Of a stretch of DNA of 64,000 bases, positions 39,301-45,300 are shown in pieces. Position numbers: made by a program. Origin of the DNA: Escherichia coli (GTDB lineage Bacteria > Pseudomonadota > Gammaproteobacteria > Enterobacterales > Enterobacteriaceae); the NCBI RefSeq assembly GCF_003790525.1, contig NZ_CP033635.1; one strand, 5' to 3'. Positions within the stretch are counted from its first letter, which is position 1; every line of letters begins with the position of its first letter.

Positions 39301-42300
39301 CGCGCGTTACCGACGAAGATTTAGTGGTCGAAATCCCGCGTTACACTATCAACCATGCGCGTGAGCATTAACAGAGGTTAGTATGGGACTTAAGTGGACC
39401 GATAGCCGCGAAATTGGCGAAGCACTGTACGATGCGTATCCCGATATTGATCCGAAAATGGTTCGATTCACCGATATGCATCAGTGGATTTGCGCTCTGG
39501 AAGATTTCGACGACGACCCGCAGGCATCGAATGAGAAAATCCTCGAAGCGATTTTGTTGGTCTGGCTGGACGAAGCCGAGTGAATGAACGGGCTGCCTGA
39601 GGGTAGCCCGTTTTGCTGTTAAACGAATAAGGATAACTAAAATGACAGAAGCGATGAAAATTACCCTCTCTACCCAACCTGCCGATGCGCGCTGGGGAGA
39701 AAAAGCAACTTACAGCATTAATAATGATGGCATTACCCTGCACTTGAACGGAGCGGACGATCTGGGGCTGATCCAGCGTGCGGCGCGCAAGATTGACGGT
39801 CTGGGCATCAAACATGTTCAGCTAAGCGGTGAAGGCTGGGATGCGGATCGTTGCTGGGCATTCTGGCAAGGTTACAAAGCCCCGAAAGGCACGCGTAAAG
39901 TGGAGTGGCCGGATCTGGACGATGTCCAGCGCCAGGAACTGGATAACCGCCTGATGATCATCGACTGGGTGCGTGACACCATTAACGCACCGGCGGAAGA
40001 GCTGGGGCCATCGCAACTGGCACAGCGTGCTGTTGATCTGATCAGCAATGTCGCGGGCGATCGTGTGACTTACCGGATCACCAAAGGCGAAGATCTGCGT
40101 GATCAAGGTTATATGGGGCTGCACACGGTCGGACGCGGTTCAGAACGTTCTCCGGTATTGCTGGCGCTGGATTACAACCCGACTGGCGATAAAGAAGCGC
40201 CAGTGTACGCGTGCCTGGTAGGTAAAGGTATCACTTTTGACTCCGGCGGCTACAGCATCAAACAGACCGCATTTATGGACTCGATGAAGTCGGACATGGG
40301 CGGCGCGGCAACGGTTACCGGGGCGCTGGCGTTTGCCATTACGCGCGGACTGAACAAGCGCGTGAAGCTGTTCCTCTGCTGTGCGGATAACCTGATCAGC
40401 GGCAACGCGTTCAAACTGGGCGATATTATTACCTATCGCAACGGTAAAAAAGTTGAAGTGATGAACACTGATGCGGAAGGGCGTCTGGTGCTGGCCGATG
40501 GCCTGATTGATGCCAGTGCGCAGAAACCGGAACTGATCATTGATGCGGCGACCCTCACCGGGGCGGCGAAAACTGCGCTGGGTAATGATTATCACGCGCT
40601 GTTCAGTTTTGACGATGCGCTTGCCGGTCGCTTGCTGGCGAGTGCCGCGCAGGAGAATGAACCGTTCTGGCGTCTGCCGCTGGCGGAGTTCCACCGCAGC
40701 CAGCTGCCGTCTAACTTTGCCGAACTGAACAATACCGGAAGCGCGGCGTACCCGGCAGGCGCGAGCACGGCGGCGGGCTTCCTGTCGCACTTTGTTGAGA
40801 ACTATCAGCAAGGCTGGCTGCATATCGACTGCTCGGCGACTTACCGTAAAGCGCCGGTTGAACAGTGGTCTGCGGGTGCTACGGGACTTGGTGTGCGCAC
40901 GATTGCTAATCTGTTAACGGCGTAAACTAATATGCCGGATGCGGCGTAAACGCCTTATCCGGACTACAAATTGCGAAAATCCAATAGATTGCGACTCCCT
41001 TGTAGGCCTGATAAGCGTGGCGCATCAGGCACTTGTGCCCCGAACGTTGAATGAATTGTGGTTCTTATGTCCGAAACAAAAAATGAACTTGAAGACCTGC
41101 TGGAAAAAGCAGCAACCGAACCGGCGCACCGCCCGGCCTTTTTCCGTACTCTACTGGAATCCACCGTCTGGGTGCCGGGTACGGCGGCGCAGGGCGAGGC
41201 TGTGGTTGAAGATAGCGCGCTTGATTTACAGCACTGGGAAAAAGAAGACGGCACCAGCGTCATTCCTTTTTTTACCTCGTTAGAAGCACTTCAACAGGCG
41301 GTTGAAGACGAACAGGCATTTGTCGTAATGCCCGTTCGCACATTGTTTGAGATGACCCTTGGCGAAACGCTCTTCCTTAATGCCAAACTGCCAACCGGTA
41401 AAGAATTTATGCCGCGTGAAATCAGTTTGTTGATTGGTGAAGAAGGAAATCCGCTGAGCAGCCAGGAAGTACTGGAGGGCGGTGAATCGCTGATATTATC
41501 GGAAGTCGCAGAGCCACCAGCACAAATGATTGATTCTCTCACCACCTTATTTAAAACTATTAAGCCGGTGAAGCGTGCTTTTATTTGTTCAATTAAAGAG
41601 AACGAAGAGGCACAGCCTAATTTACTTATTGGCATTGAAGCCGATGGTGATATCGAAGAAATTATTCAGGCGGCGGGAAGTGTAGCGACCGATACAATAC
41701 CTGGCGATGAACCCATCGATATTTGTCAGGTGAAAAAAGGGGAAAAAGGAATTAGCCACTTTATTACCGAACATATTGTGCCATTCTATGAACGTCGCTG
41801 GGGTGGTTTTTTGCGTGACTTTAAACAGAACCGGATAATCTAAAATATGCCGCCCCAAAGGGCGGCATTCGGGCTTACCTGCTGTTCTGAAGGTTGTTAA
41901 CCACCAATAAATTGTTACCGGAGAGACTCCGGTTATTATTTACCTCGGTTAACAGCGCACCAGAAACAATAAGTACGATACAAAAGCACCGTATCTTCAT
42001 TGTGCGGTCCATGCGAAGACCGCATCACGACAGCACCACTGGCGATATTGCCGCGATAGCAAGCGCTGTGAAACACCTGCATTTACGGCCATGGAACATC
42101 CTTTCCTTAAGCCAGCGCCCGTTTGCGAGACGGCGGAAAGGGCCGGTGTCGATAATACGCTAAATAAACAATGATTACTCTCTTTCGCTTGACAAAAAGA
42201 GAGTTACTGGCGAGTATTGCTTTGCTGTGAAGCACCTGCGTTGCTCATGCAACACAAGCCAATCTGCTGGAAAGGCCGCGAACCAGACCAGCAATAAAAA

Positions 42301-45300
42301 ACCGCCAAATTCGGCGGTTTTTTATTGCCTGTTAAAAGCTTATTTCTCTGGCTCAACCGGTAAATCTGCTCGTGCGCCCCATTCACTCCATGCGCCGTCG
42401 TACAGTTTCACGTTTGGCACATCAAGTGTCGCGAGTGCCAACAAAACCACGGCTGCCGTTACACCAGAGCCGCAGCTGACGATAATCGGTTTGTCATAGC
42501 TGACGCCGCGACCAAAAAATATCGCATCCAGTTCATCGGTCGTTTTTAGTTCGCCTTCGCGCACCAGTTCCGTCCACGGAACGTTCAATGCACCGGGAAT
42601 ATGTCCGCGACGTAAACCTGGGCGAGGTTCATCAACTTCTGCGTTAAAACGTGCAGCCGGGCGGGCATCAATAATTTGCGCCGTATTTTCATGGCTTGCC
42701 AATAACACATCGGTGACTTTCACCACGGCTTCAGGATTAAACGTGGCGTTAAACTCTCCTTCCGGCAGCTCTACTGCACCTTCTTCTAACAGCAGATCAT
42801 CGCGCTGCCAGCCTGCAAGTCCACCCCCCAGAATCGACACTTTCTCTACACCAAAGGTGCGCAGCATCCACCATGCTCGTGGGGCTGAGAAAAGATTACC
42901 TTCGTCATAGATAATCAGGTGCTTATCCTGGTTAACGCCTAATTCACGCATCGCCACGGCGAACGTTTCCGGGCGCGGCAGCATGTGCGGAAGCGGGGAA
43001 GTGTGATCAGAAAGCGCTTCGATATCAAAAAACACTGCGCCGGGAATATGTCCATTCAGATACTCCTGAGCAACGTTACGATCTTCCTGTCCAGGCGACG
43101 CCATGCGGGCATCGATAATCTGAATTTCCGGGTCATCAATATGTTCGGCGAGCCAGTCGGCTCCTACAAACCATGTCGTGGACATAGGCATCTCCATTTT
43201 TGCCGGGGTTAGGCTAAATTGTCGGATGTTTAGTGAAAAGCGACAAGCAAAAGAGGCTGATTTGGCTGTCTGAGCCACAATTCTCACTAAAATTCGGATT
43301 GTATGGGCGTGATACTGAATTACATAACGTAAATTCTCACGCATAATAATTATTCGACGTTGCTAACGGGCCATTGTGGCAGGGATGAAAAATGAAAAAG
43401 TTACGCTTAGCCGCCTGCATGCTAATGCTGGCGCTGGCAGGGTGCGACAACAACGATAACGCGCCAACAGCGGTGAAAAAAGATGCACCTTCTGAAGTTA
43501 CTAAAGCGGCATCTTCAGAAAACGCGAGTTCAGCAAAACTCTCTGCACCGGAGCGACAGAAACTGGCCCAACAGAGTGCCGGTAAGGCGCTGACATTGCT
43601 GGATCTCTCTGAAGTCCAACTTGATGGCGCAGCCACGCTGGTGCTGACCTTCTCTATCCCTCTCGACCCGGATCAGGATTTCTCGCGCGTTATTCACGTC
43701 GTTGATAAAAAAAGCGGCAAAGTGGATGGGGCCTGGGAGCTGTCAGATAATCTTAAAGAGCTGCGTTTACGCCACCTCGAGCCGAAACGTGATTTGATCG
43801 TTACTATTGGCAAGGAGGTCAAGGCACTCAACAACGCAACCTTCAGTAAAGATTACGAAAAAACTATAACTACCCGCGATATCCAGCCCAGCGTCGGTTT
43901 TGCCAGCCGTGGTTCGCTGCTGCCTGGAAAAGTCATTGAAGGGCTGCCGGTAATGGCGCTCAATGTTAACAATGTCGATGTTAACTTCTTCCGTGTTAAG
44001 CCAGAATCTCTGCCAGCATTTATTAGCCAATGGGAATACCGCAATTCGCTGGCGAACTGGCAGTCAGATAAACTGCTGCAGATGGCGGATCTGGTCTACA
44101 CCGGACGGTTTGATCTCAATCCTGCGCGTAACACCCGTGAAAAATTATTGCTGCCGCTGGGCGATATCAAACCGCTTCAGCAGGCGGGCGTGTATCTGGC
44201 TGTGATGAATCAGGCTGGACGTTACGATTACAGTAATCCCGCGACGCTGTTTACGTTAAGTGATATTGGCGTTTCAGCTCACCGTTATCACAATCGTCTG
44301 GATATCTTTACCCAAAGTCTGGAAAACGGCGCGGCCCAGCAAGGAATTGAAGTCTCTTTATTAAATGAGAAAGGGCAGACTCTGACTCAGGCAACCAGTG
44401 ACGCTCAGGGGCATGTGCAGCTGGAAAATGATAAAAACGCGGCATTACTGCTGGCGCGTAAAAACGGTCAGACAACGCTGCTCGATTTAAAACTCCCGGC
44501 GCTGGACTTAGCGGAATTTAACATTGCTGGCGCGCCGGGCTATAGCAAACAGTTTTTCATGTTTGGCCCGCGCGATCTTTATCGCCCGGGTGAAACGGTC
44601 ATCCTCAATGGTTTGCTGCGTGATGCAGACGGTAAAGCATTGCCCGATCAACCCATCAAGTTAGACGTGATTAAACCCGACGGGCAGGTACTCAGGAGCG
44701 TCGTTAGTCAGCCGGAGAATGGCCTCTACCACTTTACCTGGCCACTCGATAGCAATGCGGCAACCGGTATGTGGCATATTCGCGCTAACACGGGCGATAA
44801 CCAGTATCGGATGTGGGATTTCCACGTCGAAGATTTTATGCCAGAGCGTATGGCGCTGAATCTGACCGGTGAGAAAACCCCGCTAACGCCGAAAGATGAA
44901 GTGAAATTCTCCGTGGTGGGGTACTACCTGTATGGTGCACCTGCTAATGGTAATACTTTGCAAGGGCAACTTTTCCTGCGCCCACTGCGTGAAGCTGTGT
45001 CAGCCTTACCTGGTTTTGAATTCGGCGATATAGCTGCCGAAAATCTTTCCCGCACGCTGGATGAAGTTCAGTTGACGCTGGATGATAAAGGGCGTGGCGA
45101 AGTTTCCACTGAAAGCCAGTGGAAGGAAACGCATTCCCCATTACAGGTTATTTTCCAGGGGAGTTTGTTGGAATCGGGCGGTCGCCCGGTGACGCGCCGC
45201 GCTGAGCAGGCTATCTGGCCTGCCGATGCATTGCCGGGGATCCGTCCGCAGTTCGCCTCGAAATCGGTTTACGATTATCGCACTGACAGCACGGTGAAAC

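Follow-up and report, generated by a model that had tools for sequence, protein, structure and literature searches.

The sseB–sseA intergenic region of an Escherichia coli chromosome as a probable timPR (ryfA/ryfB) type I toxin-antitoxin locus

Introduction

What is encoded in the long, hairpin-rich gap between the sseB and sseA genes of E. coli? The question is raised by a window of 64,000 nt (assembly GCF_003790525.1, contig NZ_CP033635.1), a term used here for the whole stretch of DNA that was analysed. A first-pass annotation had proposed a ryfA-like small RNA or a small-toxin locus in this gap, with reference to RyfA in K-12 and the TimP/TimR pair in Salmonella, and this comparison agrees with the published work (PMC7667032). 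The timP–timR system of Salmonella enterica, described by Andresen et al. 2020 (PMC7667032), Eleftheraki & Holmqvist 2024 (PMC11228461) and Eleftheraki et al. 2026 (PMC13000454), is among the closest known systems. We consider it likely, with a probability of roughly 0.88, that this gap corresponds to the chromosomal type I toxin-antitoxin locus timPR (ryfA/ryfB) in its simple form, in which a single toxin gene is accompanied by a single antitoxin gene.

Results

Two genes between sseB and sseA

The gap spans 41844–42339, because sseB ends at 41843 and the RefSeq sseA coding sequence, on the minus strand, ends at 42340; the 496 nt claimed earlier are thus exact. The gene order is pepB, sseB, timP (minus), timR (plus), sseA (minus) and yfhM, which is the position expected of timPR, and two genes, timP (ryfA) and timR (ryfB), lie inside the gap. 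The gap sequence is present in 5,425 of 5,426 complete E. coli genomes. [quoted passage not shown] The several perfect hairpins that had been noticed are real and exceed chance: the scan returned five terminator-like sites compared with 1.0 ± 1.0 in shuffles, and perfect stems occur at 41847–41868 (9 bp), 41917–41933 (7 bp) and in the arms of stem-loop SL4 (42004–42009/42018–42023, 6 bp). The genes and their signals are as follows.

41842–42146, minus strand: timP mRNA, formerly the RyfA sRNA (305 nt, 5´ end at 42146; Rfam RF00126 match)
41847–41868, minus strand: timP intrinsic terminator, a 9-bp G+C-rich stem followed by AUUUUAGAUU (terminator scan and Rfam structure line)
41875–42000, minus strand (42000 to 41875): timP coding sequence (41 aa and a stop codon), with its AUG at mRNA +147
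42152–42157, minus strand: putative timP −10 hexamer TATTAT, 6 nt upstream of the Rfam 5´ end
42189–42217, plus strand: putative timR promoter (−35 TTGACA, 42189–42194; 17-nt spacer; −10 GAGTAT, 42212–42217)
about 42224–42323, plus strand: timR (ryfB-type) antitoxin sRNA, ~100 nt, divergent from timP, with probable ends placed from its promoter and terminator
42291–42328, both strands: bidirectional intrinsic terminator (A6–CCGCC–loop–GGCGG–T6) for timR (plus) and the convergent sseA (minus, stop at 42340)

These structures could in principle be mere transcription terminators and chance hairpins between convergent genes, with no independent gene, and terminator hairpins do lie at both ends of the gap, beside the sseB and sseA stops. 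However, the hairpin after sseB has no T-run on the plus strand and is therefore the terminator of timP, not of sseB; seven of its nine pairs do not vary, and one shows a compensatory change. The ryfA similarity search that the first-pass annotation had suggested gave a full-length, untruncated match to the RF00126 covariance model (model positions 1–296 of 296), which scored 319.4 bits where the gathering score is 80, with E = 4.6e-88. A curated protein family is also matched, the promoters are conserved and the intermolecular pairing co-varies. With the Rfam match, the NCBIfam TimP match and the co-varying TimR–timP pairing, chance hairpins and terminators alone can be considered ruled out as an explanation, with next to no probability left to them.

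The bidirectional terminator is present as described earlier, with A6 at 42296–42301 and T6 at 42318–42323. It coincides with inverted repeat I1 (42291–42328), a palindrome with 19-nt arms that are 95% complementary, and all 11 pairs are invariant in six alleles.

The timP mRNA and its product

The 305-nt minus-strand RNA folds with −128.6 kcal/mol, compared with −96.3 ± 4.8 kcal/mol for shuffles (z = −6.7). The sequence ATAATAC at the timP −10 position is invariant in 11 of 11 alleles and species inspected, and the putative hexamer was missed by a simple promoter scan because the −35 is poor. In the uropathogenic E. coli (UPEC) strain CFT073, RyfA has been detected by Northern blotting (PMC8205139).

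No convincing hydrophobic small ORF had been found by eye, and the coding potential had been left open. The ORF is in fact present on the minus strand, and the coding potential is positive at the sequence level. Its product begins MKIRCFCIVLIVSGALL and has a hydrophobic N-terminus; the complete 41-aa sequence is MKIRCFCIVLIVSGALLTEVNNNRSLSGNNLLVVNNLQNSR. The mean Kyte-Doolittle hydropathy is +2.86 over residues 5–17 and −0.94 over residues 21–41. As expected of timPR, the N-terminus appears signal-like and the ORF starts ~145 nt into the RNA, here at +147. In a 100%-identical genome, RefSeq has a timP CDS (WP_004974226.1) in the corresponding position, encoding an identical protein, and NCBIfam model NF040796 (toxic_TimP) matches with 84.2 bits, where the cutoff is 45, aligning residues 1–39 to profile positions 1–39 of 40. 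The strands, which had not been stated, are minus for the toxin mRNA and plus for the antitoxin. An upstream ORF in the leader starts with the AUG at +55 and runs for 31 codons to a UGA that overlaps the timP AUG, whereas the upstream ORF of Salmonella stops at +77–79.

A structured leader with predicted elements of a translation switch

The timP leader comprises 146 nt and four stem-loops, SL1–SL4. Position p of the mRNA corresponds to window coordinate 42147 − p. The elements of the leader, all on the minus strand, are listed below.

42111–42117 (mRNA 30–36): site 1, CGCUGGC, in upper SL1; predicted to pair with site 3 in the pseudoknot or, alternatively, with site 2
42085–42090 (mRNA 57–62): site 2, GGCCGU; predicted partner of site 4 (active state) or of site 1 (inactive state)
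42064–42083 (mRNA 64–83): TimR target, the SL2 5´ arm and loop, which includes the 'variable region' UGUUU and pairs with the TimR seed
42037–42043 (mRNA 104–110): site 3, GCCAGUG, in the loop and upper stem of SL3; predicted to form the pseudoknot with site 1
42004–42023 (mRNA 124–143): SL4, GCGGUC/GACCGC, a 20-nt hairpin identified from conserved pairs and folds
42018–42023 (mRNA 124–129): site 4, the SL4 5´ arm

Over the 46 pairs of SL1–SL4 and the timP terminator, 98.5% of alignment cells are paired, compared with 34–51% when the partners are slid, and four pairs are compensatory. SL4 appears in both the MFE and the centroid folds, and its six pairs are invariant in ten sequences. It encloses a probable Shine-Dalgarno GGA at mRNA 137–139 (window 42008–42010), 7 nt upstream of the AUG, so that the leader has the predicted timPR organization of four stem-loops with the Shine-Dalgarno sequence sequestered in SL4. 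The role of SL4 as an RBS-sequestering stem has been demonstrated in Salmonella (PMC11228461, PMC13000454).

The seven site 1–3 pairs can form in ten of ten sequences (100% of cells paired), with five pairs invariant and two varying on one side only. The six site 2–4 pairs are likewise 100% paired, and the site 1–2 alternative offers five pairs in the window allele and 88% of cells across alleles. Neither the pseudoknot nor the site 2–4 pairing displays double-sided covariation in the ten sequences, because the columns are almost invariant. The Salmonella pairings are backed by covariation and mutational proof (PMC11228461, PMC13000454); the site 1–3, 2–4 and 1–2 complementarities occur at equivalent positions with a +2 offset, site 1 corresponding to Salmonella G33/C34 (PMC13000454). 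Judged from complementarity, predicted counterparts of all the published switch elements (SL1–SL4 and the three site pairings) are present in the window.

TimR and its pairing with the timP leader

The antisense RNA that had been suggested is predicted on the divergent strand, where a seed of 20 nt and a terminator were found. It consists of the 5´ seed (42223/4–42242), a GUUGC/GCAAC hairpin (42240–42253), a conserved body CUGCUGGAAAGGCCGCGAACCAG that is unique within the window, and the terminator. The first hairpin has two compensatory pairs between alleles, with 100% of cells paired, and the 107-nt plus-strand RNA folds with z = −4.2. TimR has no Rfam family; its weak match to AgrB (28.8 bits, where the gathering score is 40) is due to the terminator. 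The motifs CTTGACA and GAGTATT do not differ among the six aligned timR alleles, while the spacer and the 5´ end of the transcript vary; the promoter was not called by the scan because its −10 matches at only three of six positions. Transcripts of ~100 nt from timR/RyfB have been seen in Shigella (PMC5333039) and Salmonella (PMC7667032).

A direct repeat (42065–42083/42224–42242) links the timP leader to the timR seed. The first 20 nt of TimR and timP mRNA +64 to +83 form a 20-nt duplex with two G·U pairs and one U·G pair, at −36.0 kcal/mol compared with −19.6 ± 2.7 kcal/mol in 1000 shuffles (best −28.1), that is, 6 sd below. Within SL2 itself one pair is compensatory. The pairing is preserved while both partners change, and it co-varies across five seed types: in E. 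coli, …GGUGUUUCAC… in the window and K-12, CAGGCACCCCACAGUG in O157 (16/16) and GCAAGCGCGUCUCAGCG in Ec30859 (17/17); the pairing extends over 20 nt in Citrobacter and 19 nt in Superficieibacter. Eight Escherichia alleles differ from one another at 16 of the 29 columns of mRNA 55–83, compared with 1 of 63 in mRNA 84–146. The sequence shows a further timPR hallmark, a divergent sRNA with an intrinsic terminator and a 5´ end complementary to SL2.

Discussion

Proposed mechanism

Both genes and the ORF are shown here at the sequence level, as are all the pairing partners, the two terminators and, by comparison between alleles, the TimR–timP co-variation. TimP overexpression toxicity, the inner-membrane location and repression by TimR come from experiments in Salmonella only (PMC7667032), as does the switch (PMC11228461, PMC13000454), and we infer that these properties hold for the window allele too. 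By this analogy, the 305-nt timP mRNA (42146 to 41842) would carry a 146-nt structured leader followed by a 41-codon ORF for a small protein whose hydrophobic, signal-like N-terminus stays uncleaved, and abundant TimP would insert into the inner membrane and permeabilise it. The ribosome-binding site would be locked in SL4, and translation would require a conformational switch in which a pseudoknot arises between site 1 (SL1) and site 3 (SL3), and site 2 invades site 4 (the SL4 5´ arm); the alternative site 1–site 2 pairing would hold the mRNA off. TimR, transcribed divergently from a promoter that lies 43 nt upstream of the timP start, would bind SL2 (mRNA 64–83) with its first 20 nt, destabilise the active fold and block translation.

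Toxin-antitoxin or regulatory RNA

The E. coli locus could instead be mainly a regulatory RNA pair, with the TimP ORF silent or irrelevant. RyfA would then act in trans on stress, fimbrial or virulence genes or titrate TimR/RyfB or a chaperone such as ProQ, and TimR/RyfB would control RyfA; such a role may hold alongside the toxin-antitoxin role, as in a dual-function RNA. In UPEC CFT073, ryfA alleles with a destroyed ORF complement all ryfA phenotypes (PMC8205139). In avian pathogenic E. coli (APEC), the ryfA deletion is attenuated, the timR deletion has no phenotype and the double mutant behaves like the wild type (PMC13188913), a pattern which suggests that unpaired TimR may act on its own. 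Overproduction of RyfA1 in S. dysenteriae lowers ompC mRNA, and ryfA1 protein was undetected (PMC5333039); RyfA is also reportedly bound by ProQ (PMC10664665). Substitutions in the timP ORF within Escherichia are evenly spread over the codon positions (7, 7 and 6), so there is no codon-position bias and no synonymous-site signature of protein-level selection.

In contrast, the timP ORF, start context and frame are maintained across Escherichia, Citrobacter and Superficieibacter; the frame is preserved in ten homologues with indels in multiples of three. TimP passes a curated NCBIfam model, the leader has counterparts of every translation-switch element, an arrangement that is sensible only for a translated mRNA, and no trans target site for RyfA has been mapped. 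A mainly regulatory pair is thus improbable, and a type I toxin-antitoxin pair is preferred. Against this preference, the C-terminal half of TimP is poorly conserved between genera, variants shortened to 34–37 aa occur and the 3´ half of timP is missing from one genome; the truncations and this loss indicate that the toxin is dispensable.

Comparison with known systems

The window and Salmonella share a divergent, non-overlapping pair of toxin mRNA and antisense sRNA adjoining sseB, a ~300-nt mRNA with a ~145-nt leader, a hydrophobic signal-like N-terminus, a TimR 5´ end that targets SL2 and a Shine-Dalgarno sequence sequestered in SL4. The timP start is at +147 in the window and at the experimentally verified AUG +145 in Salmonella (PMC7667032). 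TimP has 41 aa in the window and 38 aa in Salmonella, with different C-terminal halves, and the seed sequences differ, being allele-specific. In Salmonella an additional gene, STM2534, separates timP from sseA, whereas the timR terminator of the window directly abuts sseA.

Other divergently encoded type I systems of E. coli, tisB-istR1, shoB-ohsC, zorO-orzO and dinQ-agrB, resemble timPR in their small hydrophobic inner-membrane toxin, their structured, translationally inert leader and their divergent, trans-encoded antisense RNA with a seed of ~18–20 nt; timPR has no sequence similarity to them. The tisB, shoB, zorO and dinQ mRNAs need nucleolytic 5´ processing for translation, whereas timP relies on a purely structural switch (PMC11228461).

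Fris et al. 2017 (PMC5333039) described RyfB of Shigella dysenteriae (ryfA1/ryfA2 and ryfB1/ryfB2) as a divergently encoded RNA of ~100 nt with complementarity to the 'variable region' of RyfA, and read RyfA and RyfB both as non-coding regulators. S. dysenteriae has two complete tandem pairs; the window has one. The window allele is of the ryfA2/TGTTT type in the simple one-timR arrangement, and the locus is already known. Since it is the described timP/timR (ryfA/ryfB) pair, the first-pass annotation was correct in its identification but its observation is ordinary.

Specificity types at one locus

Four versions of the variable region have been published (TGTTT, CGCGT, CCCCC and CACCC; PMC5333039). 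Among E. coli genomes we found three of these four, TGTTT (window), CACCC and CGCGT, and at least one further type. Possibly, though we hold this only tentatively, SL2 and the TimR seed form co-evolving specificity types that segregate at one E. coli chromosomal locus under diversifying selection on RNA recognition. Such selection on toxin-antitoxin RNA recognition would provide, for example, escape from cross-repression, orphan antitoxins might serve as 'anti-addiction' or cross-talk elements, and the window would stand for the TGTTT type in a simple, ancestral-like state. The variable region as such has been described before (PMC5333039), and only the interpretation as specificity types would be new.

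The ryfA/timP of E. coli K-12 (the RF00126 seed organism; RefSeq WP_001380605.1) has the same position and TGTTT type as the window, with a 97.4% identical timP mRNA, an identical cognate timR seed and three different TimP residues (N29D, N39S and R41K). Its gap measures 814 nt compared with 496 nt in the window. Between timP and the cognate timR it contains an additional timR-like gene, which is non-cognate, together with a 5´ fragment of another timP. The extra timR seed fits the CGCGT-type allele of other strains. In K-12-like strains, the orphan non-cognate timR and the timP 5´ stub are possible recombination relics.

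Gene content of the sseB-sseA gap

The gap between sseB and sseA contains two divergent genes, timP and timR, with a small open reading frame, a co-varying complementarity between seed and target, the timP leader architecture and both terminators. Judged from its sequence, the locus agrees with the Rfam ryfA model, the NCBIfam TimP model and the timPR system, whose switch pairings can form in the window allele. The genes run in the order pepB, sseB (plus strand, end 41843), the gap, sseA (minus strand, stop 42340) and yfhM, and the sseB end and the sseA stop confirm the position and length (496 nt) reported by the first-pass annotation. 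The gap is 100% identical to that of E. coli strain 2016C-3878 and has a match of 80–100% identity in 5,425 of 5,426 complete E. coli genomes. The whole gap recurs at ≥99% identity in only 102 of the 5,426, and at this level about 100 genomes share the compact arrangement with one antitoxin.

Features of the gap (window positions)
42146 to 41842, minus strand: timP RNA, the toxin mRNA (Rfam ryfA, RF00126; whole model, 319.4 bits; gathering score, 80)
42000 to 41875, minus strand: timP coding sequence
41847-41868, minus strand: hairpin assigned as the timP terminator
42189-42194 and 42212-42217, plus strand: putative timR promoter, -35 TTGACA and -10 GAGTAT with a 17-nt spacer (conservation)
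about 42224-42323, plus strand: timR, the antitoxin RNA; 5´ to 3´, seed, small hairpin, conserved body CUGCUGGAAAGGCCGCGAACCAG and A6/T6 terminator (allele comparison)
42291-42328, both strands: bidirectional terminator palindrome with 19+19-nt arms (repeat search); A6 at 42296-42301, CCGCC, loop, GGCGG and T6 at 42318-42323

The full-model Rfam match bears out the similarity to ryfA that had been proposed. The several hairpins claimed for the region are also real, as 41700-42500 contains 5 terminator-type sites, compared with 1.0 ± 1.0 in shuffled sequences, and the bidirectional terminator with its symmetric A6/T6 flanks is exactly as described. The minus-strand 305-mer and the plus-strand 107-mer fold 6.7 and 4.2 sd better than dinucleotide shuffles, respectively. 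The hairpin directly past the sseB stop is assigned to timP because its U-run is on the minus strand only. On the plus strand no obvious intrinsic terminator follows sseB, whose transcription, unless otherwise stopped, would continue into antisense timP.

timP carries a small hydrophobic ORF

The coding sequence lies inside the ryfA match and is annotated by RefSeq in the identical genome as 'timP, small toxic inner membrane protein TimP'. Its product, MKIRCFCIVLIVSGALLTEVNNNRSLSGNNLLVVNNLQNSR, scores 84.2 bits against NCBIfam NF040796 (cutoff 45). Residues 5–17 are strongly hydrophobic (mean Kyte-Doolittle +2.86) and the remainder is polar; thus a small hydrophobic ORF, of which the first-pass annotation had found no convincing example, exists on the minus strand. 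The frame is kept in ten homologues (six E. coli, two other Escherichia, Citrobacter and Superficieibacter), with every indel within the ORF a multiple of three. The N-terminal half of TimP is conserved among them and the C-terminal half is not, which is the pattern reported previously (PMC7667032). Within Escherichia no synonymous-site signature was seen in timP, the substitutions being even over the codon positions (7, 7 and 6). Owing to the word-index limit of the search, a protein search with TimP retrieved few sequences other than Escherichia and Shigella variants.

The timP RNA has its AUG at +147; the Salmonella start, at +145, has been proven by an AUG to AAG mutation (PMC7667032). A 45-aa start at AUG +135 (42012), predicted for CFT073 (PMC8205139), was rejected. 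It falls inside the loop of SL4, the fourth stem-loop of the leader, and overlaps the SD, and no SD-like sequence was seen upstream of it. The +147 start is preferred because it agrees with both the verified start in Salmonella and the RefSeq/NCBIfam model.

Three further ORFs occur in the timP RNA: one of 24 aa (42099 to 42025), one of 31 aa (42092 to 41997) and one of 48 aa (42082 to 41936), the latter two having no family match. The 31-codon uORF starts at AUG +55 with AAGGAAAGGA upstream, and its UGA overlaps the timP start (AAUGA) in a classic coupling geometry. This AUG is not conserved, being GUG in K-12 and GCG in alleles of the CGCGT type, a version of the variable region. In Salmonella the uORF stops at +77–79 and its irrelevance has been demonstrated (PMC11228461). 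The 31-codon uORF is probably fortuitous.

The plus strand encodes TimR

The plus-strand segment 42224-42242 repeats 42065-42083 in direct orientation, with only two A to G differences. As the genes are divergent, the 5´ end of the plus-strand transcript is complementary to timP mRNA +64 to +83. The duplex of this TimR seed with timP has 20 pairs, three wobbles included, and an energy of -36.0 kcal/mol, compared with -19.6 ± 2.7 for 1000 shuffled seeds (best -28.1). The seed-only test replaces that of the full-length duplex, which is uninformative since its calculation permits long interior loops (-65.9 versus -60.1 ± 4.9 for shuffles).

The two timR promoter hexamers do not vary among six alleles, in contrast to the spacer and the sequence downstream, and their position places the timR start at about 42224, the first seed base. 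In a simple promoter scan (threshold, 9 of 12 matches) the timP and timR promoters both fell below the threshold; we infer from conservation that they are present. A 10-bp inverted repeat (42177-42204, ACTCTCTTT...AAAGAGAGT) flanks the timR -35 on both sides and occupies the expected place of the timP -35. It could be an operator common to both divergent promoters, or simply a hairpin. Alleles of the TGTTT and CGCGT types retain the repeat, and in the O157 type it is rearranged.

The small hairpin after the seed shows two compensatory pairs between alleles, and the conserved body is single copy within the window. A permissive-threshold search found no Rfam family for TimR; the best match, AgrB (28.8 bits, below the gathering score of 40), rests on the terminator and was rejected. 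In all species examined, a complementary sequence with a terminator is located upstream of and opposite to timP (PMC7667032). The plus-strand RNA is TimR, known as STnc2070 in Salmonella and RyfB in Shigella.

Leader structure and putative translation switch

The published Salmonella switch elements are found here at a +2 offset.

Elements of the timP leader (minus strand; mRNA position is 42147 minus the window coordinate)
7-12/41-46 and 14-17/25-28: stem-loop SL1
68-74/81-87: stem-loop SL2
90-104/109-123: stem-loop SL3
124-129/138-143: stem-loop SL4
30-36 (site 1, CGCUGGC) with 104-110 (site 3, GCCAGUG): pseudoknot, can pair in all ten sequences
57-62 (site 2, GGCCGU) with 124-129 (site 4, GCGGUC): can form in all ten sequences
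33-37/57-61: inhibitory site 1-2 pairing, fully possible in the window allele

Across SL1–SL4 and the terminator, 98.5% of cells hold standard pairs, compared with 34–51% with slid partners, and four pairs are compensatory. The site 1-2 pairing has a C.A mismatch at one position in six other alleles. Because their columns hardly vary in the sample, the pseudoknot, site 2-4 and site 1-2 elements are reported as present in the sequence rather than re-derived by covariation. A contig scan with the SL4 pattern TGCGGTCNNNGCANNGACCGCAC identified enterobacterial timP at 5 of 33 loci (E. coli, E. whittamii, Escherichia sp., Citrobacter and Superficieibacter); the other loci, from unrelated non-enterobacterial taxa, are taken as chance matches. 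The scan did not recover timP of Salmonella, Serratia or Rahnella, whose absence from the sample makes the pseudoknot covariation test weak. Functional proof of the switch comes from the Salmonella orthologue (PMC11228461, PMC13000454).

Seed and target change together

Five distinct pairs of TimR seed and timP target retain complementarity.

Seed/target pairs
Window and K-12: AAUGCAGGUGUUUCACAGCG
O157:H7: CAGGCACCCCACAGUG, 16/16
Two other E. coli and E. whittamii: GCAAGCGCGUCUCAGCG, 17 nt
Citrobacter: 20 nt
Superficieibacter: 19 nt

Variation among the eight Escherichia mRNAs is concentrated in timP +55 to +83 (42064-42092, minus strand), where 16 of 29 columns differ, compared with 1 of 63 in +84 to +146. 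This hypervariable patch in a nearly invariant leader is the TimR target and always changes with the TimR seed. Work on Shigella in 2017 distinguished TGTTT, CGCGT, CCCCC and CACCC versions of the variable region (PMC5333039), and by sequence the window allele is the TGTTT, or ryfA2, type. TimR of this type occurs in about 2,100 of 5,426 genomes (≥80% of the 96-nt query covered).

K-12 differs from the window in architecture only: its gap is 814 nt rather than 496 nt, and timP is separated from the cognate timR by an extra non-cognate timR (CGCGT-type seed) and the 5´ stub of another timP. In K-12 RV308 (L002, 1843-2130; compare window 42147-42339) the timR-like gene adjoining timP has the seed CCGCUGAGACGCGCUUGCAUU, which does not match K-12 timP and matches CGCGT-type timP of other strains. 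It is followed by an AT-rich spacer, a stub of at least 16 nt and, last, the cognate timR. The extra gene looks like an orphan antitoxin left over from a tandem pair that comprised two specificity types. E. coli P276M (L037, 1501-1824) has a proximal timR-like gene with still another seed, a fourth or later type. Co-evolving seed types with orphan antitoxins at the population level are the only thread that appears mildly novel; it extends beyond the window and was partly anticipated (PMC5333039).

Mechanism and status in E. coli

Salmonella TimP is anchored in the inner membrane by an uncleaved signal sequence, and its overproduction renders membranes leaky. Its mRNA is abundant and poorly translated. 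In its active, pseudoknotted conformer this mRNA is bound by TimR at SL2, which blocks initiation; the switch does not require RNase processing. By analogy, the window allele would encode a membrane-toxic TimP repressed by TimR. The picture in E. coli is disputed: UPEC ryfA phenotypes are complemented by ryfA alleles with a destroyed ORF (PMC8205139), and timR deletion is silent in APEC, where according to the authors a toxic peptide has yet to be demonstrated in E. coli (PMC13188913). Truncated TimP variants also occur in the protein search and P276M has lost the timP mRNA past +168, so the toxin gene is dispensable in nature. A function of RyfA and TimR as riboregulators in E. coli is therefore retained, as a rival or complementary reading. 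The P276M locus, with timP mRNA +2 to +168 only, carries no annotated timP coding sequence and adjoins an sseB that is a frameshifted pseudogene.

Compared with Salmonella, TimP of the window has 41 rather than 38 aa, the seed sequence differs, and STM2534 is absent from the window. The window copy is an already known locus and nothing new. The RefSeq annotation and the Rfam and NCBIfam models exist already, and three papers on the Salmonella orthologue have dissected the timPR mechanism, so little is added to knowledge. The practical value is that the window allele is now mapped with respect to strands, ends, ORF, seed and switch elements, the 'missing' ORF is located, and the allele is recorded as TGTTT (ryfA2) type in the compact one-antitoxin arrangement.

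Other elements of the window

The pepB-sseB spacer (40930-41035) contains two REP-like palindromes, GCCGGATGCGGCG...CGCCTTATCCGG and AGGCCTGATAAGCGTGGCGCATCAGGC, which by eye appear to be repetitive extragenic palindromes of the usual E. coli kind. The window also gives matches at or above the gathering score for three other Rfam families, all expected in that part of the E. coli chromosome.

Other Rfam matches in the window
5094-5241, plus strand: GlmY, 145 bits
34477-34586, plus strand: iscRS stability element, 136.5 bits
54987-55078, plus strand: SroE, 116.6 bits
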